DNA of 37,491 nucleotides from an uncultured Thiopseudomonas sp. (GTDB lineage Bacteria > Pseudomonadota > Gammaproteobacteria > Pseudomonadales > Pseudomonadaceae), in assembly GCA_964567275.1 (NCBI GenBank), contig CAZMLX010000003.1, positions 1 to 37,491 of the forward strand, in the 5' to 3' direction. This document shows, piece after piece, positions 4,937 through 21,421 of this stretch (positions are counted from its first letter, which is position 1; every line of letters starts with the position of its first letter). Below the pieces are notes generated by a model, which was not told the origin of the DNA, searched no databases, and saw only the letters and a list, made by a program, of their open reading frames with translations. The position numbers were made by a program, and so were the translations under genes.

Positions 4937-6196
4937 TCACCCGGCCGGTTCGCAAGCTGGGTCGCTGGCGACCTGGTTGACAGCATTGCGCAGCTGTTTG
5001 AGCAGGCGCCTGGTGTGGGTTGAGGCAAACACCTGGCCACCGGTATGTTCGGCAATGCAGTCGGACAGGCGGGTGTCGCTGATGTTGACCACATTGACCC
5101 TGAGTCTGGGTTGCTCCCGGGCGATGTTGGCGGCAACCGTACAGGCATCAACCTCGCAGCCATCCTCGCCATCCACAAACATCAGAATCACGGCATCCTT
5201 GTTGCGACCATCGACCAGACTGGCGGCCTGTTGCAGGCTGATGCCGAGCGGGGTGCCGCCATTGGCGGTCAGTCCGGCCAGTTCCCGGCGCAACTGCGGG
5301 TGCTGCGCATGGCTGAACAGGCCGTGGTTACGGATAGAGTGACAGCCGTTAAAGGTTAGCAACCGGGTATCAATGGCCGGGTGCAGGTCGTTGATGATTT
5401 GGTCCAGCCCCCGTTGTGCCACCTCGAACCGGGACGGGCCGGTGGTCAGTTGTTTGACTCGGGGATGATCCTTGGGCAGGTGTGTACCCCGCTCAAAATA
5501 CCAGCGTTCATCTTGGTGGCTGGTTGTGACATTGAGGTTCATCGAGCCGGATGTATCCAGCACCACCACAAAGTCGGGCGGCTCGGCGGCCGGGGTGCAG
5601 GTAAAGCTGGGTACCGGCCGAGGGTCCGGATCAACCAGCCCCCAGTAGGGCCCACGCCATTGCCACAGCCACCACAGCAGAAATAGCAGCAGTGGCAGCA
5701 GCAACAGCAGAATCAACCACCAGGGAATCAGAAAATAGCGTCGCTTCACCACCGGTGGAGGGGTAACGGGTGGCGTGACGGTCGCGCTGGCGGGATCGGG
5801 CCGGGGCGGTAGGCCCCAGCGCACCAGTACCGGCTCGTCATTGAGGCTGTACAGATTGCTAGTGTCGGCACAGCCCAGCAAAAAGCGCAGGCGTTCGGCT
5901 TCCTGTGGCTGGCCACCCGATTGCAGGGCAGCTGCCAGCTTTTCAATGGCCGTCTGGCGTTGTTGCAGCCGCTCCAGCAACTGGCTTTGCGCCTGGCTGT
6001 TGAGCTCGGCAAAAGGCCGAGGCTGGCCGCCCAGCTCACTCCACCATTGCAGGTTGCCGTCGTGACCACTACGGGGAATAGCAAACAGGCTGGCTATGCT
6101 GGGTGGAAAATGCCGCTGTAGCAGCGCCACACCCTCCGTCAGCTGTTGCAGGCTGTCGTCGCTACAGGTGAAGGTTTCCCGGGTGATGCGCTGCAT
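4937..6196 (-). CDS. SrfA-like N-terminal domain + Pro-rich linker + TM helix + C-terminal vWA domain protein
   Basis: N-terminus shares FAIP..G.L.W.S.L.G and LY...PVL..WG with the SrfA at 19776-21125. TM segment WWLILLLLLPLLLFLLWWLW. MIDAS motif VVVLDTSGSM plus GGTPL and DGED. Confidence 0.8.
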   Translation of the reverse strand: MQRITRETFTCSDDSLQQLTEGVALLQRHFPPSIASLFAIPRSGHDGNLQWWSELGGQPRPFAELNSQAQSQLLERLQQRQTAIEKLAAALQSGGQPQEAERLRFLLGCADTSNLYSLNDEPVLVRWGLPPRPDPASATVTPPVTPPPVVKRRYFLIPWWLILLLLLPLLLFLLWWLWQWRGPYWGLVDPDPRPVPSFTCTPAAEPPDFVVVLDTSGSMNLNVTTSHQDERWYFERGTHLPKDHPRVKQLTTGPSRFEVAQRGLDQIINDLHPAIDTRLLTFNGCHSIRNHGLFSHAQHPQLRRELAGLTANGGTPLGISLQQAASLVDGRNKDAVILMFVDGEDGCEVDACTVAANIAREQPRLRVNVVNISDTRLSDCIAEHTGGQVFASTHTRRLLKQLRNAVNQVASDPACEPAG

Positions 6197-6214
6197 GGGC
6201 GGTATCCTCGCTGA

Positions 6215-6727
6215 TTACTCGTAACCCAGGCTGAACTGCAGATTGGCTACCTTTTGCTGCAGGTTTTTTAGCTCCTGCTGACGTGCCTGCAGGGTAGCCG
6301 GATCGGCATTGACCATTTGCTGGCGGGCGTTGGCCATTTGCTGCTCCAAATCACTGATTTGCTTCTGCACGTCAGACTTGTTGGCATGGCGAGCCTTGAG
6401 CTGGCCCAGCAGAGAGCTGAGCGAACGGTCCAGTGCGGCCTGCTGCTTTTGCTGCTCGGCCAGACTCAGGCGGGTAGCCTGTTGCTGGGCCTGCAGGTCA
6501 GCAAAGACCTGACGGAAAGCGGCATTTTGTTCGCGGGCGGCAATCAGTTCCTGCTCGCGCTGCTGAATGCGTTCGCTGTAGGCACCGGAATGGTCGCAGT
6601 TCATTTTGGCCAGCAAGCTGGCATTGGTGTTGGAAGGGTCACAATTGGCCGGATTGCTGGCGCAGCCGGCCAGCAGCACAAGGCTGCCGGCGGCGATCAG
6701 ATGGAGGATGGGAAGGGTCCGGTTCAT
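6215..6727 (-). CDS. Coiled-coil lipoprotein
   Basis: Lipobox LAGC; Cys pair near the N-terminus; Gln/Leu-rich heptads to the C-terminus. Confidence 0.8.
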   Translation of the reverse strand: MNRTLPILHLIAAGSLVLLAGCASNPANCDPSNTNASLLAKMNCDHSGAYSERIQQREQELIAAREQNAAFRQVFADLQAQQQATRLSLAEQQKQQAALDRSLSSLLGQLKARHANKSDVQKQISDLEQQMANARQQMVNADPATLQARQQELKNLQQKVANLQFSLGYE

Positions 6728-6730
6728 GGT

Positions 6731-7453
6731 TTAGCCCAGGGTCAGTGCGGAGCGCATGTTGTAGAGATCGTCGACTTCACGTTGCAGGTTGGCGACTTTC
6801 TCGTTCATTTTGCTGATTTCGGCTTCAACCTGGGCCACGTTGTTGCCGGCACCGTTGTCACGCTCCAGCTGGGCGGTTTTCTGGTATTCGGTCACTTTTT
6901 TTTGCATGCCGGCCAGTTGCTTGTTCATCACCGCCAGGTTGGTATCGATCTGGGCGATTTCTTTCTTGGCGTTGGCCTGGTTAACCTGCTTGTTGGCGAT
7001 GTCTTTCTGGATGCTGGCAATACGCTCGCGGTCGGTGGCGATTACGCTCTGGATGGCGGCGGTCTGACCGATGACGGCTTCGGTGTCGGCCTGTACGTCC
7101 TGGCTCATCAGGGCCAGACGCTCGGAGGTGTTGGAATACTGGCTGCGACGCTGGTCGTAGTAGTAGTTGGCGCCCAGACCAACGCCGCAGCCGGCAATGG
7201 CGGCGAGAATCATGCAAGCGGCTTTGTCATTGGTATTGGATACGGCGCAGCCCAGAATGCCGACACCGGCCAGGCTGGCACAGGCGGTCAGGCCGCTGGT
7301 GGTAAAAATTTTGGCCTGTTTGTTCTGGGTCAGGCGCGGGTCGGCGGCGGTGGAGCTGTCCACCATGCTGCTGCCGGTGCTGGCACAGCCGGTCAGGATC
7401 ATGGAGCTGGCCAGGGCCAGGCTGAGCAGGGTTTTGTTGAAAAATTGATTCAT
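6731..7453 (-). CDS. Lipoprotein with Gly/Ala-rich hydrophobic hairpin and coiled-coil tail (TagQ-like by position and architecture)
   Basis: Lipobox LTGC; glycine-zipper-like segment ACASLAGVGILGC...CMILAAIAGCGVGLGA; long coiled coil; AAGGAG RBS. Confidence 0.75.
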   Translation of the reverse strand: MNQFFNKTLLSLALASSMILTGCASTGSSMVDSSTAADPRLTQNKQAKIFTTSGLTACASLAGVGILGCAVSNTNDKAACMILAAIAGCGVGLGANYYYDQRRSQYSNTSERLALMSQDVQADTEAVIGQTAAIQSVIATDRERIASIQKDIANKQVNQANAKKEIAQIDTNLAVMNKQLAGMQKKVTEYQKTAQLERDNGAGNNVAQVEAEISKMNEKVANLQREVDDLYNMRSALTLG

Positions 7454-7470
7454 GGTGTTACTCCTTGGGG

Positions 7471-9021
7471 TTATTGGCGGGCTGGTTGTTGCACTGCTTT
7501 GCAGTGTTCCAGCCAGGCTTTGGTGTCGATTTTCTGGGTTTTCAAAAAGGCCTGCTGGTTGCTCCAGTGGCTTTTCAGGTAGGGCGACAGCTCTTGCAGC
7601 TGACGGTTGGAAGCAATAATGGTCTGCAATACGGGTACCTGGCGGGCCAGGTGGGGCTCGCCATACAGGCTGGCCGACTCAACCAGACTGCTGGCGTAGT
7701 AACGGCTCAGCTTGTGCAGACGGTCTTTTTGCTCGTCCAGTTTGTCGGCCCGCATTGGGCAGCTGGCATCGGCCTCGTCGCCGCTGCAGTTGAGGTCGTA
7801 GTTTTTTTGCAGAAAGTCCAGATAGATGCCGTCGTCCAGCATTTTGGTGCAGAGAAAGGCACCCAGGTTAAGGCTGGCACGGATGGCCTGGTCGCGGGCT
7901 TCTTCCTGTTGCTGGTTGCTGGCACGCAGCTGGTTTTCCAGGCTTTTCAGCTGTTCTTTGAGGCCCTTGTCCTCAACCCCGGCCACCAGCTTTTCCAGTT
8001 CCTGCACAGTGGTTTTCTCCCCGCTGGCTGTGGTATCGCTGACGCCTAGCTGCTTCCAGCTGCGCTCGATGCTGGCCACCCGCTCGCGCGAGGTCAGGGT
8101 GGGTGACACCAGGGCCAGGCGTAGGCCAGTGGTTTTGCCGCTGGCAGCCTGGTTGCCGTCGTAGTAGTTGCGCTCTTTGCGCAGGGCGGTACGCAGCTCG
8201 CCCTGGGTGGTACGGACATCGCCACCGCGCACCACAAAGCCGCCGGCCTGGCCGTGCTGGCGGTCCAGTTTATTGAGGCGGAAAGGCTCGAATATCATTT
8301 CATCGGCGTTGCCGAGCATGTCGTGCAGACCTAGCGGGTTGGGCTTGAGCAGGCCGGTCAGCTGCAACTGGCCGTTGGATGACTGGGCACCGGCAAACCA
8401 TTCGTGGGCATTGAGGCCTTCGGGCATGGGGTAGCGGCTGTCACGGAACTCGGCGGTGCTGACCTGCAATCCGCCACGGGCGGCAAATTCCCACTCCACC
8501 TCGGTCGGCAAACGGGCAAAGCCGGGTTGGCCGTCCTCGCTGGGCAGGCTGTCGGCAGCATGCTGGCGCAGCCACAGGTTATAGTTTTCGGCGGCCTGCA
8601 TGCCTTGCAGCCAGCTGATGCCGGTCACCGGCAGGCGCAACTTGTTGGAAGGTGCCGGGCATTCGGCGTCGGTCAGGGCCCGGTATTGCAGCTGGCTCAT
8701 TTCGTACTTGGCCATCAGGTAGTGGCGTGACGCCTCGCCCGGTCCGGCGGCAAAACTGCCGGCAATAAAGGCCGGCCGGCTGTGCTCGACATAGCCCCAT
8801 TCGGCGCTGTCCTGGCCAACCTGTACCGGATAGTCGGCCAGCGGGTCCTGTAGAGGAATCGACACCTTGCGAAACACCATGAAGCCCTCGCAGGGCATGG
8901 GCAGAATCACGTCATCGGCGGCTGGCGCCGGGTTGTAAAATTTTTCGTCCCAGCCGGCCTGGGCATTGCCCAGCGCCAGCAGCAGTGGCACGGACCACAG
9001 GAAAGAAGGCTTAAAGTTCAC
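7471..9021 (-). CDS. Exported formylglycine-generating-enzyme (FGE-sulfatase) domain protein, TagR-like
   Basis: RLPTEVEWEFAARGG, NPLGLHDMLGNADEM, RGG and GLRL motifs. GTG start at 9021 with GGAG upstream gives the signal peptide VNFKPSFLWSVPLLLALGNAQA. Confidence 0.85.
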   Translation of the reverse strand: MNFKPSFLWSVPLLLALGNAQAGWDEKFYNPAPAADDVILPMPCEGFMVFRKVSIPLQDPLADYPVQVGQDSAEWGYVEHSRPAFIAGSFAAGPGEASRHYLMAKYEMSQLQYRALTDAECPAPSNKLRLPVTGISWLQGMQAAENYNLWLRQHAADSLPSEDGQPGFARLPTEVEWEFAARGGLQVSTAEFRDSRYPMPEGLNAHEWFAGAQSSNGQLQLTGLLKPNPLGLHDMLGNADEMIFEPFRLNKLDRQHGQAGGFVVRGGDVRTTQGELRTALRKERNYYDGNQAASGKTTGLRLALVSPTLTSRERVASIERSWKQLGVSDTTASGEKTTVQELEKLVAGVEDKGLKEQLKSLENQLRASNQQQEEARDQAIRASLNLGAFLCTKMLDDGIYLDFLQKNYDLNCSGDEADASCPMRADKLDEQKDRLHKLSRYYASSLVESASLYGEPHLARQVPVLQTIIASNRQLQELSPYLKSHWSNQQAFLKTQKIDTKAWLEHCKAVQQPARQ

Positions 9022-10234
9022 GAAGGCTCTCCGCAGGTTCAATATGGATGGCGCGCAGCGCACCGAACAATGCCACCAGAGTGGCCAGCCCCATCGCCAG
9101 CAGCAGTGCCAGCAGGGCATGCTGCGGGGTGATCTGGCAGACAAATTCGCCGGTGGGACGGGCGTGGCCCAGCAACCGGTTGAACAGCTGGCTGCCGGCC
9201 AGGTAACCGAGCAGGCCGCCGGCAAAGCCGAACAGCGCCAACAGCATGCCCTGCAGCAGCAGGTAAGCGGCAAGGGCGGTACGCCCAAAACCCAGCAGCC
9301 GCAACAGTGCCAGGCTGCGCCGCTTGCGGTCGATATTGGCAAAAAAAGCACCGGCCAGCGAGGCCAGGCAACCGGTCAGTGAAGCGCCGGCAATCACCGC
9401 AAAAATCACTTCCAGCACATGATTGATGGCCTTGACGTTTTCAATGTCGGCCAGCCGGCTTGAGGTTTCGATGCGTTGCTGCTGCAACCAGCGCTCCAGG
9501 GCGGCGACGCTGTCGATATCGGCGGCATAGAGCCGGGCCCGGGCGTAGCGTACCGGTACGCTGCCGGCATCACGGCCGCCGCTGTTGCCCAGCAGCGGGA
9601 CGGCATGGCCGTCACGGTAGTGCTCCAGTGCCAGCAACAGCTCGCCCGGTACAAAGGCTGCCGCCCGGGCAAAGCGGGCCGGTGGCAGCACCGCCACAAT
9701 GTGCAGGCTGACCTCGGCTTGCTGTTGCTGGCCTTCAACCCGGCGCATCACCCGCAGTCGCAGGCTCTGGCCGGCATCCAGTTGTAGCTGGTCGGCGGCC
9801 CGTGCCGACAGGATTACCTGGTTGGTGGCCAGCTGCACATCAATACCGGCCGTAAGCGGGTCGCCACTGGCGGTAGGAATAATTTCGGCGTTTTCAACAA
9901 AGCGGCGCTGGGCACCCAGCAGATCGGCCTGGGTGTTGAGCGATCGGGGCAAACCCGCCACAAAGCCGGTACCGGGCTGGCTACGCAGCTGGTCGATCCA
10001 TTCCGGGCTGTAGCTGCCACTGCTGAGCATGCGGATTTCCAGGTTGCGGGGATCGCTCAGCAGATCGGCCTGCAGCTGGCTGACCACGCCATGCTTGAGC
10101 CCGAACAGCAACAGCAGCGGAGCGATCACCGCCATCAGCGAGGCCGCTACACAGAGTGAAATTTTGCGGTCGTGCCAGAGATCGGCCAGCACCAGCCGCA
10201 GCAGCAACAGGCTGCGTTCAGCAAGCAGGGACAA
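9011..10234 (-). CDS. FtsX/MacB/LolC-type ABC permease, TagS-like
   Basis: One N-terminal TM, a large periplasmic domain, three C-terminal TMs with RKRRSLALLRLLG. Probable TTG start at 10234 with GGAG 9 nt upstream. Confidence 0.82.
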   Translation of the reverse strand: MSLLAERSLLLLRLVLADLWHDRKISLCVAASLMAVIAPLLLLFGLKHGVVSQLQADLLSDPRNLEIRMLSSGSYSPEWIDQLRSQPGTGFVAGLPRSLNTQADLLGAQRRFVENAEIIPTASGDPLTAGIDVQLATNQVILSARAADQLQLDAGQSLRLRVMRRVEGQQQQAEVSLHIVAVLPPARFARAAAFVPGELLLALEHYRDGHAVPLLGNSGGRDAGSVPVRYARARLYAADIDSVAALERWLQQQRIETSSRLADIENVKAINHVLEVIFAVIAGASLTGCLASLAGAFFANIDRKRRSLALLRLLGFGRTALAAYLLLQGMLLALFGFAGGLLGYLAGSQLFNRLLGHARPTGEFVCQITPQHALLALLLAMGLATLVALFGALRAIHIEPAESLREL

Positions 10235-10910
10235 AGCAGGTTTCTCCGGGTTGATTGTCGGCCACCAGCCGGGGCAGGCCAAACTCGTCCACCAGCGCCC
10301 AGTCGTGGGACACCAGCAGGGTGGCAATGCCCAGCTCGGCGGCCAGCTCGACCAGCAGGCCAAACAGGCGGCGGGCGTTGTGCGGGTCCAGGGCAGCGGT
10401 AGGCTCGTCGGCCAGCAGCAACCGGGGCTGATGGGCGATGGCCCGTACGCAGGCCACCCGCTGGCGTTCGCCAATCGACAGCGCCTGCGGCAGTTTGTCG
10501 AGCAGCGGCTGCAGTTGCAGCACCTCAATGGCATGCTCCACCTGCGCACACTGGGCCGGCAGGCCGAGCATGCGCCGGGGCAGGGCAATGTTGTCCCGCA
10601 CCTTCAAAAACGGCAGCAGGCCGCCGTTTTGCAGCACAAAACCCAGCGCACCGGCGCGCAGGCCGGCCAGTGCCTGCTGGTTGCCGGCGGCCAGTAATGC
10701 AGCCACGTCAACGCCATCCAGTTGGTAATGCACCAGCTGTTCGGGTTGCAGCAGCAGCCCCAGCGCCTCCAGCAGGGTGCTTTTACCGCAGCCGCTTTCG
10801 CCGGTAATGGCCATCAGGCCGCCCCGGGGCAATTCCAGTGCAGGCAGGTGAATGCGGTGGGCGGAAGGTCCGCTGCCACGCACCACCCGCAAGCCGTTAA
10901 CGCTCAGCAT
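10218..10910 (-). CDS. ABC ATP-binding subunit (LolD/MacB family), TagT-like
   Basis: GESGCGKS, LGFVLQ, LSIGERQRVA, LLADEPTAALD, VSHD. Confidence 0.88.
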   Translation of the reverse strand: MLSVNGLRVVRGSGPSAHRIHLPALELPRGGLMAITGESGCGKSTLLEALGLLLQPEQLVHYQLDGVDVAALLAAGNQQALAGLRAGALGFVLQNGGLLPFLKVRDNIALPRRMLGLPAQCAQVEHAIEVLQLQPLLDKLPQALSIGERQRVACVRAIAHQPRLLLADEPTAALDPHNARRLFGLLVELAAELGIATLLVSHDWALVDEFGLPRLVADNQPGETCFVPAC

Positions 10911-12882
10911 CAGGGCATCATTTCCAGAGGAACCGGGTACACGTTGTCGCGGGCATCGCTGCCCTCGGCCAGTGCTACCCAGCGGTTGACGTCTTCGTTG
11001 TAGCGCTGGTAGTGGCGCAGTTTGGTGGCCAGGGTGCGGATGAATTTTTCCTGGGCCAGACCGTCCCAGCTTTTCCAGGTGTCTTCATCCAGGTTGAGCA
11101 CTTCGCTGTGGTAGGGCAGGTCTTCCAGAAACTCGTCAAATACGCCCAGCTCGGCCATGCGGGTATCACCGCCCTGCTTCAGCTGGTTGGGGTCGGCGCC
11201 CATGGTGGCGGCAACCGAGCGCAGCCGCTGGAACATTTCGTCCGGCGAGATCAGGCCATGGTTGGCGGCATCCAGAATGTTTTTCACCACATCGCTAAGG
11301 TCACTGAGCTGGCCCTTGGTCAGCAGCACCCTTACATCGGTAGTGGGGATGTTCTGCTTGATCAGGTCACGGTCGGCGATCCAGGCCTGGAAAACCGGCG
11401 GTGCCTTGCTGCCGGTGCGCTCGCCCAGATAGGCCAGGCGCATGGCATGGCCGATCAGGGCGGCGTCATCCAGCATCTGCTGTTCTTCAGGCTCTGCCTG
11501 AGCATGCAGGGCGCTACCCACGGCATCCTCGCCCATGTAGGCGGCCTTGACCTGCTGGGTCAGGGCGGTGGCCAGGGTATCCACCTTGGCACCAAAGGCG
11601 TTGAGGTCGCCGGCATTGACCGGGTAGTACAGCGAGGTGCCGGTGCCCGGGTAGTTGGACAGCACCTGGTACTGGCTTTCGGCCTTGCTGTGGTTGTTGT
11701 CACCGGCGCGGGTTTTCAGGTGCAGGGTATAGATGGCAACGCCAGGATTGGCGGCTTCCAGCCGTACCTGTTCGGCATTGAAGCCGGTGGACGACAGCGG
11801 GTTGTCGCCTTCCAGAGCGCCGGCATCGGTAATCAGCACCACATAGCGGGCGCCAAAGGCGCTCCAGTCGATGGCATCGATGGCGTGCATCACGCCCGCA
11901 TAGGAGTCTTCATCAAAGGCGGCGCTGGATACCCTGGCCTGGCGCAGGCTGGCGGCCTTGGCCATAAAGTCGGCACCGTCCTTGACCTCGTTGGGGTCAA
12001 CGTACATTTTGCTGACAAATTCCAGGCCGGGCACCGCCTTGGTGCTGGAGCGGAACGAGATCAGCCCGAACTTGACCTGATTACCCAGGTTTTCCCGCTC
12101 GATCTGCTCGTAAACCTTGCGGATGGCCTCGCGGGTACGGTCAATGTAGGGGTCCATGGAGATGGTGGAGTCAATCACAAAGACGACCGCCGCGCTGAAC
12201 TCAGTGAGCTGGCCAGGGTCGGCCTGACCGCCGGCAGCGGAAGCAGCGCTGGCACTGCTGCCGCCAGCGCTGGCTGGCGCATCAGCCTGGCTGACCGAGG
12301 CAACATTGAGAATGCGGGTGCGGAAGCCCTCTTCGGTCATGATTTCTTCGCCGCTGAGTACCGGCAGCAGGTAAAACTGCTTGCTCATGTCAACGAAGTA
12401 TTCCGGCTCCTGGGCCAGTACGCCCTGCGCCCGCTGGCCCTGTTTCAGCTGGGCACGGATCGGGGCAACATGGCTGACCGGATCGGGAGCGTCGAGAATG
12501 CCTTCCAGTTGGTTGCGCTGGTTGAAAAACAGCAGGCGGTCCCGGTTGGCGGGGTTGGTGAAGGCTAGTGTCAGCTGCATTTTCCAGTCCACGGTGCAGC
12601 TGGCCGGCAGCCAGCCGCTGAGGGTGCCGTAGCTGTCCGGGCCAACATGCAGCCACTCGACACCGCCGCTCTGGCTACGCTCGTAGACATAAAAACGGCT
12701 GAAGGCCGGCTGGCTGGTACCGCCAGCGCCACCGGCACTGGCCGACAGCTTGCAACCGGGAGTGGTCAGCACCCGCTGGAACAGGGTTTTCTTGCCGTCC
12801 TGCAGCAGCGGCGACTGGGCAGCCATGGCCTGGCTACAGCCCAGACCGAGCAGGGCGGCCAGGGTCAGGGTACGAAAGGGCA

Positions 12883-12886: not shown

Positions 12887-13962
<1,076 letters not shown>

Positions 13963-13965
13963 GGT

Positions 13966-16653
13966 TTATCCCTTGTTGAATGCCTTGATGACAAGGCCCA
14001 GTTGTTCGTTTTGTTCGGGAGTGATTTCCCGGCCTTTACGGTGGCCCGAGTTGTTCTGGGTATGGATGGCCACCCCGGAAAACCAGTCATAGGCAAACAG
14101 CACCGTCTGGTCGATAGCCTGTTCGGGCAGCGCCGGGAAACGCTGCTCCTGGCTGCTTTGATAAAAAGAAAACAGGGGTGTTTTGGTGCCCAGCAAACCG
14201 TTGGGGCGCTCGTTTTTCGGCTCGCTCATATGGCCAAACCAGGCGGCAAAGTCGTTGAGCACCAGTTGGCAGGTCAGAACCTGGCGCTGCACCATGGCGT
14301 CATGGCGCACACCGGTCTGGCTGCGGCGCAGTAGCGCCTTGCTCAGTTGGGCCGGCAGGTCGAGCCGTTCGGCGGTGATGATCATTTCGTTGACCAGTGC
14401 GCTGATGACATCGGGCTGCAAGCCGAGCAGGTCGAGCAGTGGCAGCCGCCGCGGCAGCTGACGCAGATGGCTGACCCAGAGTTCAAAGGCGGCCCGGGCG
14501 AAACGGTGCTCATGGCTTTGCAGCGCCGGCGTGGCTGCGGCAGCCGGAGCTGCGGCCGGCTCGCTGTCGTCGCTACCCCAAATGTCAAAATCGGCTGCGG
14601 GGGCGCTGGCTGCGGCGGCAGCCGGTGCGCTGTCGGCCTCATAGCCGGATTCGAAATCACCGCTCAGGTACAGCTGGCGCAGCTGCTCGTCGGGCAGCGC
14701 CAACGCTGCCAGCAGTTCGCCCAGCACCTGGTGGCGGGACTGTTTGACAAAGGGGCCGACAATTTTGTTGGCCAGTTCTTTTTTGCGGGCCCGCTCGTCT
14801 TCACCACCGGGCTCGTAGTAGGCGTCGAGCCGTGGCAGCAGCTGGTCCAGCAACTCGTTGAGCTGCTCGCGGATGCGGCCCAGCTTGAAATTGATGTCGC
14901 TGACCGGAACCAGCGCCTGGCTGAAGCGGGTCATGCCACCGTCGTTGAGGGTCAGCATGGCTTGCCAGGCCGCGGCGGGCTGGGCTACGTGACGGCGGGC
15001 GAGCTCACTGTTGGCAAAGGTTTCACCCAGCAGATTGAGGTTGGCTTCCGATTCGGATTGAAAGCCGGTTTCGTTCTCCTGGCTGTCCAGGTTCAGAAAG
15101 AACGCTTTAAAGCGGGGCTTGCGTACCAGATAGGTGTTGCGAAACGGTTGGCTGTCCCACTGCTGCATCCAGTCTTCCTTGCCAAAGCGCTCCATCATGG
15201 TCAGCTTGAGCATGTTGTCACAAGCTTCAGCAAACAGTGATGGCCCAGCCTGCAGTGCGTTGATGATAAAACCGTCGCACATGGTCAGCGCCCACACCAG
15301 CCCGCTGGGCCGGCCATCCCGGTGTTGCGGGGTTGGCCCCTGGGTGTTGTCGATCCATGACTTGAGCACCGGCCCGACACTGACCACCTCGCTTTGCTTG
15401 AAGGTACTGGTGCACATCACCAGGGCGTTCATTTCCTGCTCGATGGTGTAACGCTCGAACAGGTAAGCGACCTTGCCACGCAGCAACAGTTTGGCTACCG
15501 GGTTGCCGGGCTGGCCGTCGCTGTTGACCTCGCCCGCCTCATCCAACCGGGCCAGTTTCTGGCGGCTGCGGTAGCCGGGGAAGTCGAGCAAGTCAACGCT
15601 GTTGACCAGATCGTTGGCCGGCGTGCTTTTAAGGCGGAAAATCAGCTCGTTGGTCAGGGCTGCCAGTTCGGCGGCCTGCACCGAACAGGGCGCAGCCAGC
15701 TGGCCGTCAATCAGTGGCCGTACCTGCAGGCTGGTGTCCTGACCACTGCCCAGCCGGCTGAGAATGTCGACATTCATGATGCTGTTGGTCTGGCGCAGTT
15801 CGTCGCCCTGTCTGTTGACCAGCGCTTCAATCGGGGCAAACAGGGTGTCGGCCAGTCCCAGCCGGTGCAGACAGCTGGCCAGCTGGCGGTAGGTGGCAGT
15901 CATTTCGGGAATGCCGCCCCACAGCACCGAGAACAACTGGCCACGCTCGTCGGGGCTCAGGCGGGGTGCCAGCTGCAACACTGTTGGCCAGTATTCGGCT
16001 GCCAGCACTTCGACTGAACGAGGATAGTTGCGTTCCAGATAGTCCCACAAGGCTACCACGTCGTCACGGCTCAGGCCGGGCTGCCCAGCGCTGTGGGCTC
16101 GGCCGGCAAAGGGTTGCAGCGTTTCCTGTACCCGTTCGCTGGTGATGGGGTCGCGGCGCTGGGGATCAAAGTCTTCAAACCAGGCGTTGGCCAGAATAAT
16201 GGCCAGTTCCACTTCGCGGAACAGACGCAGCTCCACCGGAAAGGCGGAGTCTGGCGCCGGCCGGCTGATGCGGGTAAAGCGGGTGACCAGTCCGGTGGCC
16301 TCCTTACCGCCACCCACAGGGTTGACGTGTTTAAGGAAATCCAGGGTTTCATGGCCCATCTCGCTGTGCAGGCTGCCTTCGCTGTCGGCGGCCAGCGCTG
16401 AAATCAGGTAGCTTTTGCCGGCCTGGGATAGTCCGAAAAAGCCGATACCCATGGGCGTGGTGGATACCCGGGCCAGGCTGCGGGCCAGGTTGCGGGCACG
16501 GTACAGGTCACGGTTCAGGCGTTCGGCCTTGTCGGCTACCTCGGCCACTTTGGGGGCGACTTCGGCGATCCAGTCCAGTCCCAGTCCGGCACCCTTGTAA
16601 ACGGCCTGCCAGGCGTTTTGCAGTTCAGTCTGGTTTGGTGTCAGGTTGCTCAT
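13966..16653 (-). CDS. srfC: SrfC-family P-loop GTPase-like protein
   Basis: GFFGLSQAGKSYLIS (G1), KEATGLVTRF (G2), LLDFPG (G3), LLRGKVAYLFERY; 895 aa; directly downstream of srfB. Confidence 0.85.
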   Translation of the reverse strand: MSNLTPNQTELQNAWQAVYKGAGLGLDWIAEVAPKVAEVADKAERLNRDLYRARNLARSLARVSTTPMGIGFFGLSQAGKSYLISALAADSEGSLHSEMGHETLDFLKHVNPVGGGKEATGLVTRFTRISRPAPDSAFPVELRLFREVELAIILANAWFEDFDPQRRDPITSERVQETLQPFAGRAHSAGQPGLSRDDVVALWDYLERNYPRSVEVLAAEYWPTVLQLAPRLSPDERGQLFSVLWGGIPEMTATYRQLASCLHRLGLADTLFAPIEALVNRQGDELRQTNSIMNVDILSRLGSGQDTSLQVRPLIDGQLAAPCSVQAAELAALTNELIFRLKSTPANDLVNSVDLLDFPGYRSRQKLARLDEAGEVNSDGQPGNPVAKLLLRGKVAYLFERYTIEQEMNALVMCTSTFKQSEVVSVGPVLKSWIDNTQGPTPQHRDGRPSGLVWALTMCDGFIINALQAGPSLFAEACDNMLKLTMMERFGKEDWMQQWDSQPFRNTYLVRKPRFKAFFLNLDSQENETGFQSESEANLNLLGETFANSELARRHVAQPAAAWQAMLTLNDGGMTRFSQALVPVSDINFKLGRIREQLNELLDQLLPRLDAYYEPGGEDERARKKELANKIVGPFVKQSRHQVLGELLAALALPDEQLRQLYLSGDFESGYEADSAPAAAAASAPAADFDIWGSDDSEPAAAPAAAATPALQSHEHRFARAAFELWVSHLRQLPRRLPLLDLLGLQPDVISALVNEMIITAERLDLPAQLSKALLRRSQTGVRHDAMVQRQVLTCQLVLNDFAAWFGHMSEPKNERPNGLLGTKTPLFSFYQSSQEQRFPALPEQAIDQTVLFAYDWFSGVAIHTQNNSGHRKGREITPEQNEQLGLVIKAFNKG

Positions 16654-19600
16654 TTCGGACTTACACTCCCGCTGTCAAGCCAGTAATTGGACGCTCCGCC
16701 CTCGGCGCTGAGCATGGTGTAGAGCTGCAGACGCACGTCTTTGCGGTCAAACGACTGGTCCTGTACGTTACTTTCAATGGTGTCATCCAGAATCAGCCGT
16801 TCGGCCACCAGCTCGGCATCGCTGCGGTCGTGATCGGCTTCTTCCACCCGGAACCGCAGCAACAGGCAGGCCTCGCGGCCGTCGGTGGTGGGCTTGCCTA
16901 CCAGTTTGCGGGTGCCCCGGTCGGTCAGTTCGATCAGATACAGCGGCGAAGCCACCCAGCGCTGGGCATCCAGCTGGCGATAACCAAGCCGGGCCTTGCC
17001 CAGCACCCGTAGTTGGGGGCCGTCCTGCGAGGGGTCGTGCAGCTGTACATGCTCGCGGCCGGTTTCCGGGTCACGCTGAATGACATCCCGGTACAGCAGG
17101 TCCTGATCGATGATCAGGTTGCTTTCGTCCAGCTTGCCGATGTGGCGCATGGTGGAGTAAGGCTTGAGCCGGCTGACGCTGAAGTAGAAATTGGAGACCT
17201 TGCGCTGTTCGCTGAGCAGACACAGCAGGGCGCCTACCGCTGCGGTGCTTTTCGGGTCGTCAATGCGGCTGTTTTTGTGGAACGGATACCAGCCTCCGGT
17301 ACGGTAATTGTGCATTGGCACAATGCGTCCGGGCGGCAGCGGAATGCGGCGGCGGATATGCGCCAGCACGCCAGGCAGCCGTGATGGGCGGCCGGTCAGC
17401 AGCAGGGCGTCACAAGGGTACTGGAACGCCATTTCGCACAATGAGTCCAGAATCTTGGTCAGGTTGATGCGATTGTCGAGAAACTCGCGGTGAATGGCGG
17501 CGAGGTCGATGCGCAGCCGCACCTGGCCCAGCTCGAAGCCGTCATGGCCGCCGTCGGCACGGCGTACACCACTGGCCACATAGTCGGCTACCCGCTGGCT
17601 GATCGGGTTGTCGGCCAGCAGCTCGTTGAAGCTGTACTCATGCACCGGCACCGGAATTTCCGGGTCGTAGCTTTCATAGTCCTTCAGCAGTCGCAGCCCC
17701 AGCGGAGTGTAAACCTGCAGGTTGAGCTGCTGACGCAAAATGGCGTCGGGGGTGCTGATGCTTTCGTCACCGCTCAGGCGAGACATCAGCGAGCGGGGAT
17801 CAAAAATGCCGTGATCCTTCAGTGCCTGCTCCACCGCTGGCAATACAAAGCGCTGGATGATGTCGAGCAAGATGTCGTCACCGGCTACCTTGAAACTGTC
17901 ACGGAAACGCTGGCGGGGAATGATCGAGGCATTGCTGCCGCTGTTGCTGTCGGCGCCACGCTCCAGCGAGTATTCGGTAATCACCAGGTCGGTGGTGCCG
18001 CCGCCAATATCCAGGCTGGCCAGGGTAATGCACTCGCGGTCCTGCTTGTCCGGGCGGGCCAGGGTGTCGAAAAATTCCTGCGGGTGGCCGGCAAAGTTTT
18101 CGCGGATTTCGGTGTACAGGTACACCAGCTGGGCACAGCTGGCTTCGTCCCAGTCCACCTTGACCTTGGGCAGTGGTACCCGGGGAGCGGGAACCTGCGA
18201 ATTGCTGCCACGGGCTTTGTAAGGGTCCAGATCGCCTTCGTGCCAGCCCATGCACTTCCATACCAGGCTTATCGCCTGCAACAGCCGGTCGTTGAGCAGG
18301 CTGCGTTCAACCTGCGGCATGCCGGGCGGAATGGTCAGGGTAATGCTGGTCAGTTGGCGGGGGCGCTGGGTGTGGCCCATGCGCGAGCGCTGCGCGGGAC
18401 TGTTGATTTGGGACAGCGCCTGGGTCAGTACCTCGGCCAGCATAAAGGTCATCAGCGAGCTGCGTGAATACTGGGGCGAAAAGGCCGGCAGCCGGTCATC
18501 CTCGTTTTTCAGCTTGTAGAAGGCTTCGCCCAGCTTGGTAATCTTGTGTGAAAAGGGCGCAGCGGTGGCCTTGGGCTCGCTGTCGCTTTGGACATAGGCG
18601 GTGTTGAAGCGCCAGCCGTGCAGATAGGGGTTTTCGTCCCACAGGTAACGCTTGGGACTGGACAGGCCGGTGGAGCCTTCGGTACCACGGCGGCGGCCGG
18701 ACAGCCGGGCTGCCTCAGCGCCGACCCGGGCAATGGTGGGCCACTGGAAGGCGTCGTGGCGGCCGCTTTGCACCGAGAAGTTTTCCTTGCCGAACGAGGC
18801 CTGGGCAAACTCAACCCGGCTTTCAAACGGCTGGCTGTACACCCGTTCCGGGCACAGCAGGTCACGGATTTGCAGCACATAGTTGAACTTGAGGCCGTCA
18901 CCGGACTGGCCATGGTTTTCCACCAGAATGCCGCAGGTACGGGAGTTGCCCACGTCCAGCACCAGATCGACCGGAATCGGCGGGTCCAGCGAGTCGGCAC
19001 CGTTGGCGGCCAGCCGGATTTGCGGCAGTACAATGCGGGCCGGCTCATTGCTGCGCTGCTCGGGAATGGGCGCTGCCATCAGGCTCAACAGGTTGAGGTA
19101 GTGGCCCAGATGCAACTGTTCCTGCAGTTCCTCGTCAATGTCTTCGCCGGGGCGGTGACGGTTGGCTTCACGGTAAATTTCGGCCAGCCAGTCCTGCACC
19201 CATTTCTGGTCCAGAAACCAGCGGCTCTGGCGGGTGTGGCAGGCCAGCCGGAAGCTGGAGCCGGCATCAATGTCTTCACGGCTGGGTGCCAGATACTGCA
19301 TGTCTTTGGTGGACGCCATGGCACGGGTATCAAAAGCCAGCGTCAGGCGATGGGTATTGCCGTCAATATCCGGCTGTTCCAGCTGTACCAGCCGCATGCG
19401 GGTCCAGTTGGTGGGGCCTTCGTCAAAACGCTCGGGCGGCAAAAAGCGGAAAAAGGGTGCCGGCAGCCACAGGCCGCCCAGCAGTTCCAGACTTTTCTGC
19501 ATGCTCAGGGTAAAGTCTTCATCGTCCACCTCGGTAATCAGTCGCTCGTCACGACTGCCGCTGTGGTTGCCGACCGGGCCGACATGGAAAAACTGGCGGG

Positions 19601-19766
19601 TTTCGGCATTTTGCAGCAGACGGGCAATCAGATTGTTGCCCATGCGGGCAAAACGACCGGCCGGCTCGTTGCGCAGGTCAAGCTGCACGGCAAAATCCAT
19701 GAACTGAATACCACTGTCGTGGATCAGGTGAACGGTTTCTTCAAATTGGGTGAGGTCTGGAAGCAT
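16650..19766 (-). CDS. srfB: SrfB-family protein, actin/Hsp70-fold ATPase
   Basis: DSGIQFMDF N-terminus, LVLDVGNSRTCG, GLSSPKRYLWD, DEASCAQ, DIGGGTTD, LLLTGRPSRLP, DPKSTAAVGA, C-terminal YWLDSGSV. Confidence 0.9.
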   Translation of the reverse strand: MLPDLTQFEETVHLIHDSGIQFMDFAVQLDLRNEPAGRFARMGNNLIARLLQNAETRQFFHVGPVGNHSGSRDERLITEVDDEDFTLSMQKSLELLGGLWLPAPFFRFLPPERFDEGPTNWTRMRLVQLEQPDIDGNTHRLTLAFDTRAMASTKDMQYLAPSREDIDAGSSFRLACHTRQSRWFLDQKWVQDWLAEIYREANRHRPGEDIDEELQEQLHLGHYLNLLSLMAAPIPEQRSNEPARIVLPQIRLAANGADSLDPPIPVDLVLDVGNSRTCGILVENHGQSGDGLKFNYVLQIRDLLCPERVYSQPFESRVEFAQASFGKENFSVQSGRHDAFQWPTIARVGAEAARLSGRRRGTEGSTGLSSPKRYLWDENPYLHGWRFNTAYVQSDSEPKATAAPFSHKITKLGEAFYKLKNEDDRLPAFSPQYSRSSLMTFMLAEVLTQALSQINSPAQRSRMGHTQRPRQLTSITLTIPPGMPQVERSLLNDRLLQAISLVWKCMGWHEGDLDPYKARGSNSQVPAPRVPLPKVKVDWDEASCAQLVYLYTEIRENFAGHPQEFFDTLARPDKQDRECITLASLDIGGGTTDLVITEYSLERGADSNSGSNASIIPRQRFRDSFKVAGDDILLDIIQRFVLPAVEQALKDHGIFDPRSLMSRLSGDESISTPDAILRQQLNLQVYTPLGLRLLKDYESYDPEIPVPVHEYSFNELLADNPISQRVADYVASGVRRADGGHDGFELGQVRLRIDLAAIHREFLDNRINLTKILDSLCEMAFQYPCDALLLTGRPSRLPGVLAHIRRRIPLPPGRIVPMHNYRTGGWYPFHKNSRIDDPKSTAAVGALLCLLSEQRKVSNFYFSVSRLKPYSTMRHIGKLDESNLIIDQDLLYRDVIQRDPETGREHVQLHDPSQDGPQLRVLGKARLGYRQLDAQRWVASPLYLIELTDRGTRKLVGKPTTDGREACLLLRFRVEEADHDRSDAELVAERLILDDTIESNVQDQSFDRKDVRLQLYTMLSAEGGASNYWLDSGSVSPK

Positions 19767-19775
19767 GGTGCCGCC

Positions 19776-21125
19776 TTATTCGCGCCGCATGGACATGGGA
19801 AACTGGGTACTGCCGTAACTGCCCGTGCAGTCGGCAATGCTTTGTGCGCCAGGCTTGCAGGTAACCTGGGGCATATCGTAGGTACTGCCGTCAGTGCAGG
19901 AGGCCTGGCCCTGGCTATGAATGCCGAGGCTGCCGTTATGCATGGCGGCGTTGACCGGGCCGCTGCAGGACGAACCATCGGAACGCTCGATGGTGACCTG
20001 GCCCTGGCCCTTCTGGAAGTCGTATTTGAGCCGTAGCGGCCGTGCGGTGCGTGCATCCATAATGCCGGCGCCGGCACGGTAGCTGCCGTCGAGGAAGTCG
20101 GCCGGTCCTTCGCCAATATCCGGCGGAATAAACAGTGGCTGGTTGGCGGCCACCGGCTCGAGGGTGGCGGGTGGCTGGACGGGCTCTGCCGGCAGCTCCG
20201 GTGGCTGTGGCGTGGGGGCCGGTATTTCCGGCAGTGTGGGTATCGGCTCGGCTGGCCGTGACGGTGGCGCCGCCGGCAGGCTGCCAACGGGAGGCATCAG
20301 TGCCGGCTCCGGTGCGGACGTGGTGAGGTCGTGGCCCAGTCGGGGCCCGGCTGTCGACAGCTGCAGATCGGGCGTGGTCACCCGCAGGTCGGGGGTGGTC
20401 AGTGATGGCAGCTTGTCCGACAGCAGCGGTATCCGTACCGAAGGGGTGCAGTAGCTGAGCAGGAAGGGCAACAACAGCAGCAACAACAGCAGTGGCAGTA
20501 GCCACCAGAACCGGGCCCAGCCGCTGCGGCGGGTGGCTACGGGTGCGGCGGCAGCAGGTAGTGGCGTAGCCGGTGGCACCGCCGCCATTACCGGGGCTGC
20601 GGGCAGTTCCGGTGGTCGGGCCGGACGTTCGTTGAGGAAAAACAACGGGTCTTTATAGCGGTCGGCGTCGTGACTGACAAAGCCCCAGAAGGTCAGCACC
20701 GGTTGCAGGCGGTCGTCCTGCTCTACCAGGTAGAGAAATTCGTTGGCAGGCGCATGGCTGGATAGCCCCAACAGTTTGCCAAAGATGATCTGGTCGCCCT
20801 GACCGGATTTTTTGCCGTTGTTGGCCAGGCTCTGGCTGATGCTGCCCACCTGACTGCGAAAATCCTCAAGTTGCCGGGTGGCCTGGCTGCGTTCGTCATC
20901 GCTGGCCGAGCTCCAGGGAATCACTTCGCCAGGCAGCGGGCTGTACCAGTCGAGTACATCGCCTTGCTCGTTGCTTTTGGGAATGGCCAAAAAACGGGCC
21001 AGATCGGGTGCCCGCCGCTCCAGTGCGGCAATGATTTGCAAGGCCGCCTTGTGTACCGGCTGGCCGGTGTCGCCCAGGGCAATAAATCCGTCGTACTTGC
21101 CGGATCGCAGTAACGCTCCCTGCAT
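19776..21125 (-). CDS. srfA: SrfA-family membrane-anchored protein
   Basis: LLRSG....F.ALG..GQPV, LAIP...DWYSP, PVLTFWGF; Pro-rich linkers flanking TM WWLLPLLLLLLLLP; Cys-containing C-terminal domain (FLDGSYRAGAG). ATG 21125 has CAGGAG RBS. Confidence 0.85.
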   Translation of the reverse strand: MQGALLRSGKYDGFIALGDTGQPVHKAALQIIAALERRAPDLARFLAIPKSNEQGDVLDWYSPLPGEVIPWSSASDDERSQATRQLEDFRSQVGSISQSLANNGKKSGQGDQIIFGKLLGLSSHAPANEFLYLVEQDDRLQPVLTFWGFVSHDADRYKDPLFFLNERPARPPELPAAPVMAAVPPATPLPAAAAPVATRRSGWARFWWLLPLLLLLLLLPFLLSYCTPSVRIPLLSDKLPSLTTPDLRVTTPDLQLSTAGPRLGHDLTTSAPEPALMPPVGSLPAAPPSRPAEPIPTLPEIPAPTPQPPELPAEPVQPPATLEPVAANQPLFIPPDIGEGPADFLDGSYRAGAGIMDARTARPLRLKYDFQKGQGQVTIERSDGSSCSGPVNAAMHNGSLGIHSQGQASCTDGSTYDMPQVTCKPGAQSIADCTGSYGSTQFPMSMRRE

Positions 21126-21170
21126 GCTCAAACTCCTGAATGACAATCCGGCTCCGGTTTGTCATTAATT

Positions 21171-21203
21171 AAAAACACACCGGCCCGTATCGGAGCCGGT
21201 GTG
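21171..21203 (-). terminator. Intrinsic terminator-like hairpin in the srfA leader
   Basis: Minus strand reads CACACCGGC-TCCGATACGG-GCCGGTGTG-TTTTT, ending ~45 nt before the srfA ATG. Confidence 0.6.
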
Positions 21204-21266
21204 CAAGGTTGCTAAAAGGGTGCGAATCTGGCGGCGGGCAAAACAGCTGCTGAAGCCTTTAATCAG

Positions 21267-21295
21267 ATTGTAAGATAACGAAATCTTAATATCAA
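21267..21295 (-). promoter_or_regulatory. Sigma70-type promoter for the srf operon with an overlapping palindromic operator candidate
   Basis: Minus strand TTGATA (21290-21295), 17-nt spacer, TACAAT (21267-21272). TAAGAT-N6-ATCTTA inverted repeat at 21271-21288. Confidence 0.65.
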
Positions 21296-21421
21296 AATGC
21301 GATCGGGGTCAATGAAGCGGAGCCATGGTCGATAATGTCATTACGATGTTATTGCTTGGGAGGTGCTGAATACTGTTGGCGAAGCAGCTGTCGGCTCCGC
21401 AGATGACAGGGGAAATCCGGT

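Follow-up and report, generated by a model that had tools for sequence, protein, structure and literature searches.

The TagQRST-PpkA system of the Pseudomonas aeruginosa H1-T6SS, which belongs to the threonine phosphorylation pathway (PMC13713981, PMC13584744), is among the closest described counterparts of the locus considered here. In that species TagQ and TagR form a complex upon damage, and in a model this complex dimerises PpkA through its periplasmic domain, via TagR loop 261-273 (PMC13713981). According to a 2026 paper, this TagQR-PpkA damage response may occur in the P. aeruginosa T6SS alone. The srfABC genes have long been called 'virulence factor' or toxin genes, without a mechanism. 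According to the accessible parts of two papers, they are repressed by RcsB and PhoP (PMC2897811) and make up a class 2 operon of the flagellar system that Salmonella requires for swarming (PMC4219756); such control is unlike a damage-response pattern, though it concerns the sensor-less form. The linkage of srfABC to tag genes and its T6SS independence are already published (2013, 2019, 2026 preprint), as kinase signalling or toxin export. A preliminary description of the present locus had expected similar clusters in other proteobacteria; both properties have been in print since 2013, and the srfABC-tagQRST-ppkA clusters of the 2013 set are mostly T6SS-free (PMC3608642, accessible text). The gene cluster itself is not new; a damage-sensing and membrane-remodelling function is proposed for it here as likely, by analogy.

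The operon consists of 11 ORFs, all on the minus strand (positions 21125..4937), in a window of 37,491 nt, the window being the whole stretch of DNA analysed. Its junctions, 5' to 3', measure 9, -4, 3, -4, -1, about -17, -11, 17, 3 and 18 bp; from the first (9 bp) to the last (18 bp) they are short or overlapping, and therefore leave no intergenic gap above 18 bp. ORF coordinates and junctions agree with the 11 co-directional genes, the gene order and the gaps of at most 18 bp in the preliminary description. Its family labels were likewise borne out by profile scans, which gave along the operon NF040486, PF07520, PF10139, VWA (weak), ABC_tran, FtsX/MacB, FGE-sulfatase and SrfA-N + VWA_2, with NF040486, PF07520 and PF10139 of the SrfA, SrfB, SrfC tandem each exceeding the curated cut-off. 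Lipoboxes and TM segments were assigned from sequence and hydropathy. Contigs of sequencing run X8 span both operon ends (4107-6250 and 19624-21550); the gene arrangement is therefore not a join artefact, and an assembly chimera is ruled out. The complete collinear order recurs in 13 of the 17 same-family genomes having g5, and the 11-gene operon is real. It is flanked by housekeeping genes. Metagenomes carrying operon DNA came from wastewater, digester, sludge, landfill and manure.

One sigma70-like promoter had been described, and its existence is likely at 21283..21312 (minus strand; TTGACC-N18-TAAGAT), where TTGACC at 21312 and TAAGAT are in register with the nearest relatives; read by eye, TTGAC...TA occurs in the same register upstream of srfA in 16/39 upstream regions of relatives. 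The overlapping candidate at 21295-21267 (minus strand; TTGATA-N17-TACAAT), with which the region first described begins, is out of this register. A promoter scan returned 3 sites against 3.0 expected from chance. Between the promoter candidates and srfA lies a terminator-like hairpin of 12 pairs with a T-run behind it (21175..21204, minus strand), and a second hairpin comes next; the srfA leader folds with a z of -3.08. The hairpin has no counterpart in the more distant relatives compared, and a search of the source genome ruled it out as a genome-wide repeat. RNA runs X18 and X19 gave short scattered contigs only (14/30 and 12/30 bins), uninformative on strand, level and co-transcription.

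Dynamin GTPase motifs are defined as G1 GxxxxGKS, G2 Thr, G3 DxxG and G4 TxxD. SrfC (13966..16653, minus strand; 895 aa; PF10139) has all four intact, as GLSQAGKS, EAT, DFPG and TMCD. Its model (pLDDT 84.9) has a G domain with a helical neck formed from both termini (aligned range about 3..895, low TM-score). The best matches in Foldseek and VIA (BDLP, Cj-DLP, mitofusin, EHD and IniA) are all dynamin-family: BDLP at E 2.9e-5, with low TM-scores to dynamins (TMq 0.14-0.21), and mitofusin 1 at Z 13.2 (rmsd 5.5 over 344 residues), a Z of about 13 being near the chance range for helical models. No 19-residue window reached hydropathy 1.7; any membrane binding might be amphipathic or go through g4 or SrfA. 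Folds and motifs agree with the preliminary labels of SrfB as an Hsp70-like ATPase and SrfC as a GTPase, and SrfC is predicted to be, more exactly, dynamin-like.

In eight three-gene loci without g4-g9, all from genomes of one other family, SrfC residues 471-540 are missing in 8/8, GxxxxGK[ST] is lost in 6/8 and DxxG in 7/8. G1-G3 are kept in SrfC of all g4-bearing loci except one, a sensor-bearing locus (L061) whose SrfC has neither G2 nor G3. That motif decay goes with sensor-less loci is new here.

SrfB (16650..19766, minus strand; 1038 aa; PF07520) is a cytoplasmic ATPase with a predicted Hsp70/actin fold. Foldseek placed DnaK/Hsp70 on top for its model (pLDDT 85.6, pTM 0.90), DnaK at E 3.9e-14, with chains only 10-14% identical. 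The phosphate-1, phosphate-2 and adenosine motifs of an actin-like nucleotide-binding domain are present, and DxGN, DEA, DxGGGTxD and TGRP are invariant. The profile scan reported PF07520 alone and no Pfam HSP70 match, and none of the 11 genes encodes a J-domain; on its model, SrfB is classed as Hsp70-like, not as a chaperone. By sequence and hydropathy, neither SrfB nor SrfC has an export signal or TM segment. The Hsp70-like and dynamin-like models appear to be new: no title on this system was among those listed by literature searches on these proteins and folds, which excluded most subscription papers, among them the 2017 X. stockiae paper, so an earlier mention of these folds is possible.

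SrfA (19776..21125, minus strand; 449 aa; NF040486 at 360 bits, cut-off 150) has, by hydropathy, a cytoplasmic SrfA-N domain, a TM near 201-225, a Pro-rich linker and a periplasmic 4-Cys domain. SrfA-N is a pseudo-kinase fold on the authority of one preprint, in its accessible part (bioRxiv 10.64898/2026.09.18.752743). Profile comparison of the SrfA and PpkA alignments gave a probability of 0.2%, and therefore no sequence trace of SrfA-N descending from the PpkA kinase; the ESM Atlas held no usable match for SrfA-N. The last gene, g11 (4937..6196, minus strand), combines SrfA-N (NF040486 at residues 18-129, E 1.2e-7), TM 156-174 and a periplasmic vWA domain (VWA_2), and on these matches is classed as a second SrfA-type receptor.

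Two further products, g4 and g5, would together form a receptor. The bitopic g4 (12883..13962, minus strand; 359 aa) has an N-domain (1-131), a Pro/Glu linker, TM 196-214 and a periplasmic Sel1-like domain (248-359). The g5 product (10910..12886, minus strand; 658 aa) has a signal-peptide-like start and a vWA MIDAS with invariant columns in the alignment, and neither kinase nor TM. In BLASTP it matched the C-terminal part of nine T6SS-type PpkA fusions at 31-38% over about 640 aa (36-38% in 8/9), and a kinase domain was verified in 3/3 scanned of those nine. By this similarity, g5 is the entire PpkA periplasmic part made as a separate exported protein; a PDB sequence search returned 0 matches for it. 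The g4-g5 complex was predicted at 0.72 against 0.00 for the best of three controls, on a score whose mark was passed by 116/157 solved pairs and 2/215 mismatched pairs, and which is only roughly applicable to g4-g5 because the alignments were own-made. Prediction runs share at least 87% of contacts, with partner pLDDT of at least 87, and place g5 residues 538-624 on g4 residues 259-342. Among 30 free gamma-type rows, 10/16 interface positions of g5 are invariant, and at positions 542, 609, 610, 617 and 621 all nine fused PpkA rows differ from them. Three alpha-type free g5 rows are like fused PpkA at several interface positions, so this contrast is partly kinship. A search of 7988 candidates for longer, fused forms of g4 gave none at E 1e-8, though such a negative is weak evidence. 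The g4-g5 pair is predicted to be a split, kinase-free receptor, which is new here.

Next come the tag-like genes. In reference T6SS loci, where the identity of TssK/L/M, TagF, PppA, kinase and TagQ was confirmed, the PpkA C-terminal part, TagT, TagS and TagR follow one another in the order of g5, g6, g7 and g8. The TagT-like ABC ATPase g6 (10218..10910, minus strand; LolD/FtsE type) matches the gene after ppkA at 39-48%, and the TagS-like FtsX/MacB permease g7 (9011..10234, minus strand, the start codon at about 10234 being uncertain; 4 TM) matches TagS-position genes at 33-37%, each in 8/9 T6SS loci. The TagR-like FGE-fold periplasmic protein g8 (7471..9021, minus strand; PF03781) matches TagR-position genes at 30-31%. 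The lipoprotein g9 (6731..7453, minus strand; Cys23), which has a coiled coil and two Gly-rich segments of hydrophobic character, is TagQ-like in position and by a weak match to profile NF041250 (38 bits, E 9.6e-10, cut-off 300), which gave 27-30 bits on two g9 orthologues and 505-524 bits on true TagQ; BLASTP to TagQ gave E 0.001. A second coiled-coil lipoprotein, g10 (6215..6727, minus strand; Cys22), has no counterpart in T6SS loci. The likeness to the tag order claimed earlier is specific for the PpkA periplasmic part and TagT/S/R; it is faint for TagQ. Loop 206-218 of g8 (13 residues) lines up with the loop through which TagR is predicted to bind PpkA and is kept within the g8 family, although the loop sequences are unlike (HEWFAGAQSSNGQ in g8, F/YNQVAGGTGQAAR in TagR). 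Catalytic FGE has cysteines after the RGG motif. No Cys was found in the RGG region in any of 40 g8/TagR rows, which rules out g8 as a catalytic FGE.

The 28 ORFs scanned in the window include no kinase, PppA, Fha or Tss protein, as first described. For T6SS INDEPENDENCE, TssC, Hcp, TssM, TssK, PppA and a PpkA-type kinase were not found in the source genome (87% complete), nor did tblastn match the PpkA kinase domain there. TssC is absent from 10/17 and present in 7/17 same-family genomes with free g5, and is present in 15/15 genomes having the fused form alone, in 3/4 sensor-bearing genomes outside the family and in 7/11 genomes reached via named loci. The tag-like block is independent of T6SS, as had been claimed. 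The claimed co-occurrence of srfABC and tag genes holds, and the two also occur apart: g5 is missing in 10/15 SrfB-positive genomes of a phylum sample, G200 has the sensor block without SrfB, loci L062 and L064 have srfABC with a g4-like gene and no g5, and L072 has no tag block at the site. SrfB was found in 0/9 same-genus genomes, with other genes at the operon site in 5/5. In a midpoint-rooted tree PpkA nests among free ectodomains, which is new here, and a single origin of all kinase fusions was rejected (AU p 2e-5).

Gene content, order, homologies and motifs are observed directly, as is the fact that the assembled genome gave no match to a T6SS or a kinase. For the operon as a whole we propose, at even odds in our own judgement, that it senses damage to the outer membrane and, by clustering the predicted g5-g4 split receptor, would bring a dynamin/Hsp70 machine for membrane remodelling to the site of damage. 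By analogy with P. aeruginosa, damage would free g9 (and g10) and stabilise a g8 dimer, with the g6/g7 ABC transporter giving an ATP-dependent step. The g8 dimer may then bind two g5, as the loop alignment suggests, and g5 538-624 is predicted, with controls, to dock on g4 259-342, a non-covalent contact that would stand in for the chain in which PpkA joins ectodomain, TM and kinase covalently. Gene co-occurrence suggests that clustered g4 N-domains might trigger the assembly of SrfC on the inner membrane, SrfA-N of srfA and g11 perhaps serving as docking platforms. Judging from the folds, SrfC could tether or seal membrane, and SrfB could load or recycle the assembly.

The same chain might read surface or cell contact and drive adhesion, swarming or cell-cell junctions via two metal-binding vWA domains. 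Two periplasmic vWA domains (g5, g11), with an invariant MIDAS in g5, would suit this, as would the Salmonella srfC mutant, which swarms poorly and swims normally (PMC4219756, accessible part), and the link of the cluster to host-associated Deltaproteobacteria (PMC3608642, accessible part). We consider it unlikely, given that the sole characterised g5-g9 homologues respond to membrane damage (PMC13713981) and that the swarming data come from sensor-less loci, the GTPase being decayed in the comparable three-gene loci here. It is still harder to credit that SrfABC is a toxin, processed and exported in membrane vesicles by the downstream genes (Sun 2019; 2026 preprint). SrfABC of X. stockiae, made as recombinant protein, proved toxic to cells of insects and of mammals, and its three components co-precipitated, but the toxicity assays used E. 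coli lysates and expressed proteins (PMC6950479, accessible part). The ABC transporter, taken as Lol-like in the accessible part of the preprint (bioRxiv 10.64898/2026.09.18.752743), stands in a cassette that is the TagTSR-PpkA sensor set in order, a link absent from that part. A dynamin-like SrfC could drive vesicle release, as suggested for LeoA, whose role in vesicle-borne toxin release is tentative in the text available; however, SrfB and SrfC carry no export signal, SrfA is membrane-anchored, g8, with an RGG-region Cys in 0/40 rows, is therefore unlikely to be a modifying FGE enzyme, and operon DNA comes from wastewater, digester, sludge, landfill and manure metagenomes.

Improbable to much the same degree is an abortive or defensive system, in which SrfC/SrfB would bar entry or kill the cell once a phage, a predator or a conjugation machine has pierced the envelope. 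The patchy distribution (SrfB in 0/9 same-genus genomes, other genes at the site in 5/5) and the response of DynA to phage too, as given in the accessible literature, speak for it, but neither a nuclease nor any other toxic effector domain turned up, the operon is flanked by housekeeping genes, and PADLOC gave no meaningful match. It returned none for SrfA, SrfB, SrfC, g4, g5, g8 and g11, one weak TM match for g7, and weak matches of g9 and g10 to long proteins (JetC and LmuB among them) that probably reflect coiled-coil likeness. It is very improbable that the tag-like block works for a T6SS located at another site, with srfABC no more than a neighbour. TssC does occur in the 7/17, 3/4 and 7/11 carrier sets, and in G024 part of TssM is matched where a contig ends; yet TssC was not found in 10/17, including G103 (3 contigs, 100% complete), where TssM was not found either, and such T6SS-free carriers already weaken the idea. 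Moreover, the operon has no kinase, and G081 has this operon plus a separate kinase-fused copy beside its T6SS.

Should the damage-sensor reading hold, it would give a bacterial dynamin an upstream damage signal. A mechanism for srfABC, and the uniqueness of TagQR-PpkA, would become testable at g8 206-218, g5 538-624 and g4 259-342, and the origin of the T6SS counter-attack sensor would be explained. On that last point, a scenario that we find possible but rather doubtful has the TagQRST-ectodomain module as an old free-standing envelope-damage sensor whose kinase-free form drives dynamin/Hsp70 membrane repair via a split receptor. In this scenario the tit-for-tat T6SS trigger of P. aeruginosa came later, by kinase fusion to that ectodomain, enterobacterial srfABC is a sensor-less, GTPase-decayed remnant, and Gram-negative bacteria would have a post-translational pathway of site-directed membrane repair.

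Compared with TagQRST-PpkA, the operon keeps the same succession, in which TagT, TagS, TagR and then a Gly-rich lipoprotein come after the PpkA periplasmic domain; it also has an equivalent TagR loop and the MIDAS. It differs in that its ectodomain is a separate exported protein without TM or kinase, it has no PppA, Fha, TagF or tss genes, it adds g4, g10, g11 and srfABC, and its g9 lies far under the TagQ cut-off. The srfABC-tagQRST-ppkA neighbourhoods of host-associated Deltaproteobacteria, Xenorhabdus and Haemophilus are the same kind of cluster, as compared by description, not by sequence, from accessible text (PMC3608642; PMC6950479; bioRxiv 10.64898/2026.09.18.752743); the accessible parts of these papers take the cassette for a Lol-like module that exports a toxin, or 'PpkA' for a kinase, and describe neither a free ectodomain nor a g4-g5 receptor nor folds of Hsp70 or dynamin type. 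In Salmonella-type enterobacteria, three-gene srfABC has the same SrfA, SrfB and SrfC families in the same order; the eight sampled loci have no g4-g11, a shortened SrfC and decayed G motifs, and have the look of a reduced version. Bacterial dynamin-like proteins (BDLP, Cj-DLP1/2, DynA, IniA, LeoA) share with SrfC the G1-G4 motifs and a G domain with a helical neck. Among them, DynA of B. subtilis gathers in foci where the membrane is damaged, with a repair role proposed (PMC6104087, accessible part). The cyanobacterial 'chaperone clade' pair of a DLP and a DnaK-domain protein (PMC5827413) has in common with SrfC the pairing with an Hsp70-type protein. SrfC differs from these proteins in its large G2-G3 insert, with no hydrophobic paddle detected, and in being a single DLP, not one of a pair, linked to a trans-envelope sensor.

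The operon, at 4937..21295 on the minus strand, belongs to the SrfABC family. Its eleven ORFs, their order and tight junctions are all as set out in the preliminary description, and the family labels proposed there match the profile-based family calls. From the sequences, the homologies and motifs of the encoded proteins are established.

The product of the fifth gene, g5, has matches in 32 of 150 family genomes: 17 hold a match of 62–79% identity and 15 only one of 38–42%, with both classes present in G081. Matches of 38–42% lie inside ORFs mostly of about 1000–1200 aa, and in the nine fetched loci of this class g5 aligns to the last ~620 residues. Profile scans of selected ORFs identified a protein kinase N-terminus in all three fused ORFs scanned, and TssK, TssL, TssM, TagF, PppA, and TagQ around fused PpkA ORFs. 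Since g5 matches the C-terminal part of kinase-fused ORFs in T6SS loci, it corresponds to the whole periplasmic part of PpkA as a separate (free) protein. Its N-terminus, read by eye, resembles a signal peptide, and no TM segment was found in it. The g6, g7, and g8 products match those of genes after ppkA (39–48, 33–37, and 30–31%, respectively) in eight of nine loci. The suggested likeness to TagQRST and PpkA stands for the PpkA ectodomain, TagT, TagS, and TagR; for TagQ it comes down to a weak profile match of g9. Excerpts of PMC13713981 set out the TagQR mechanism, with Srf unmentioned in them, and describe a TagR loop, modelled on PpkA, as necessary for duelling. Residues 206–218 of g8 align with this loop, having the same length and a different sequence, which is conserved in the g8 family.

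Counts of co-occurrence and of T6SS genes are tallies and not tests, because kin are not independent: all 11 genes are collinear within 20 kb in 13 of the 17 free-g5 genomes in the family, bearing out the co-occurrence of srfABC and the tag block, and TssC is not found in 10 of these 17, as expected if the tag block is independent of tss genes, and is present in 15/15 fused-only genomes. Among the remaining four free-g5 genomes, contig ends truncate two loci, a third has its srfB ~8 kb farther upstream, and in the last g1–g5 are present with no tag block at this place. TssM is absent from four of five genomes checked, with a partial match in the fifth (G024). The same gene order is found in fifteen named Pseudomonas and Halopseudomonas loci, as far as each reaches; these may overlap the 17-genome set and are kept out of its count. 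In an even sample of 400 genomes of the phylum, SrfB is above the cut-off in 15, including five with g5 and the tag block, two with only a g4-like gene after srfC (20–28% identity range in alignment), and eight, all of one family, with srfABC alone.

Gene content varies among relatives. PAN-domain proteins and a GH3 hydrolase replace the tag block after srfABC and a g4-like gene in L064 (6186–11305), and g11-type genes (SrfA-N, vWA) occur three times over at the operon end in L068 (1–3490), suggesting a variable receptor array. Locus L062 has two srfA-type genes, L061 has a vWA gene before srfA, and four loci of one genus (L070, L088, L089, and L090) have g5–g6 gaps of ~0.6–1.2 kb, in some also between srfB and srfC. 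About 8 kb separate srfB and srfC in G074 (L087/L115). Two draft records have srfB split over two ORFs (L007 2522–5660 and L008 1666–5180), either a pseudogene or an assembly error. SrfA has ~670 aa in L001, L003, L004, and L006, compared to the usual 450–480; in L001 the SrfA-N match begins at residue 213, as it might if the head were duplicated.

Searched by profile, a set of 1.84 billion representatives yields 740 ectodomain proteins at E 1e-30. Of the best 150, a rough criterion classes ~129 as having no long extension at the N-terminus; two are fused to a kinase and 19 carry extensions of other kinds, in one case an AAA ATPase plus TM. Since free forms made up the query, this share of free forms is biased. 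In the ectodomain tree (LG+G4; 50 rows chosen by us from 158 aligned), T6SS PpkA is a single clade (100/100) and its successive sisters are all free forms (100/99, 98/82, 100/100). With the root placed by midpoint only, and free representatives taken without genome context, the free ectodomain likely came before fused PpkA. Other N-termini with a TM segment can precede the ectodomain as well: an AAA ATPase in P0275, a second, independent kinase in P0256, and small Cys-rich heads in P0257 and P0388. The second kinase fusion is placed elsewhere in the tree, and a single group of both kinase fusions is rejected (AU p 2e-5). In G200 (L113 9520–18684), a free PpkA-type ectodomain, TagT/S/R-like genes and a glycine-zipper TagQ-like gene are accompanied by genes for a helical protein of 178 aa and a C-terminal protease of the S41 type, and by a divergent Sel1/MORN and MG2-domain operon; SrfB and TssM have no match in this genome. 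That the sensor block here comes with a gene for an S41 protease and not with SrfB is in keeping with a sensor module that feeds several outputs, of which this locus is possibly a third.

Being a soluble ectodomain, g5 requires a membrane partner. In every fetched locus showing both srfC and g5, g4 lies between them, and its product has a cytoplasmic domain, a Pro-rich linker, a TM segment, and a periplasmic Sel1-like domain, i.e., the PpkA layout without the ends. The predicted complex of g5 (24–658) and g4 (244–359) scores 0.72 vs. 0.00 for the best control; contacts agree to at least 87%, and partner pLDDT is no lower than 87. Of 157 solved pairs, 116 attain the mark for this score, as do 2 of 215 mismatched ones, a calibration that applies roughly here. 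No sequence match to g5 was found in the PDB, making it less likely that the score reflects structures memorised by the predictor. With L007 and L083 excluded, gamma-type free forms show high conservation at the g5 interface positions, and fused PpkA differs there; alpha-type free forms also differ. The modelling supports g4–g5 binding.

The best matches of the SrfB model (pLDDT 85.6) are to DnaK and further members of the Hsp70 family (E 3.9e-14, TMq ~0.3), and its nucleotide motifs are invariant across 32 rows. The SrfC model (pLDDT 84.9) resembles, with low TM-scores, bacterial dynamin-like proteins and mitofusins (BDLP, Foldseek E 2.9e-5; mitofusin 1, VIA Z 13.2, rmsd 5.5 over 344 residues), and the first 29 VIA rows are dynamin-family in every case. 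No membrane anchor was seen in SrfC. When 17 loci were aligned and others checked by motif, GTPase motifs G1–G3 were retained in all g4-bearing loci except L061 (without G2 and G3). Eight three-gene srfABC loci (L053–L060) encode a shortened SrfC without residues 471–540, in which G1 is lost in six and G3 in seven; SrfB motifs mostly persist there. This decay may be one event, as all eight belong to one family. Excerpts of PMC5827413 describe dynamin-like genes in cyanobacteria, with genes for DnaK-domain proteins coming after them.

A public run that is not marked as the source has contigs spanning both operon ends. The operon is flanked by ppk on one side and a methyltransferase gene on the other, an interval that holds other genes in 5/5 same-genus genomes, and SrfB is carried by 0/9 such genomes; the operon was thus gained in the host genome (G000) or lost in the others. 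The block found at this place in same-genus genomes is on another contig in G000 (C1 21135–25639, vs. window 4907–21422), so the site involves rearrangement. GC content is 62% in the operon vs. 60% in the genome, and the nearest named SrfB relatives are Pseudomonadaceae. Public metagenomes that contain this DNA come from wastewater, digester, sludge, landfill, bioreactor, and manure. In the srfA leader, downstream of the conserved promoter, the stretch 21204–21140 (minus strand) has two hairpins, the first of them terminator-like; GC blocks common to their arms are complementary, making alternative pairing possible, and they could terminate ppk transcripts or attenuate the operon. None were seen in relatives, whose leaders are shorter. 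Two short stretches within 29375–29796 (39–48 bp, 87–90%) match a single intergenic place in L093, and are possibly a REP-like repeat.

We give an even chance to the reading that a damage sensor clusters a g5–g4 receptor and so brings in SrfC and SrfB, which would remodel or seal the inner membrane. Damage would be the trigger, passed by a g8–g5 step to the receptor, which is predicted to form through g4–g5 contact and would cluster; a g4–SrfC step would then recruit SrfC and SrfB, and these, given their predicted folds, may carry out the repair. Control of contact or swarming is an unlikely role. Export of a vesicle-borne toxin is improbable; excerpts of bioRxiv 10.64898/2026.09.18.752743 propose vesicle export and describe a pseudo-kinase fold in SrfA-N and an ABC/vWA/FGE cassette, and in excerpts of PMC6950479, X. 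stockiae has T6SS post-translational control genes near srfABC and toxicity is reported. Defence triggered by puncture is slightly more doubtful still. Service to a distant T6SS is very improbable. G000 (2.3 Mb, 87% complete) gave no match to TssC, Hcp, TssM, TssK, PppA, or the PpkA kinase domain. The operon fails the tests for a kinase and for a T6SS and is therefore placed outside the threonine phosphorylation pathway.

The gene cluster is already known. A ten-gene srfABC-tagQ-ppkA-tagRST neighbourhood was described in 2013 in host-associated Deltaproteobacteria, where, in the excerpts of PMC3608642, only one genome of the set had a T6SS and PpkA was assumed to be a kinase. In the literature searched, no earlier report was found of a split receptor without a kinase, of an output through dynamin, or of the possible PpkA origin; the supplements of the bioRxiv study may hold SrfB/SrfC fold calls. 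By analogy, the operon likely works like the TagQRST–PpkA sensor.
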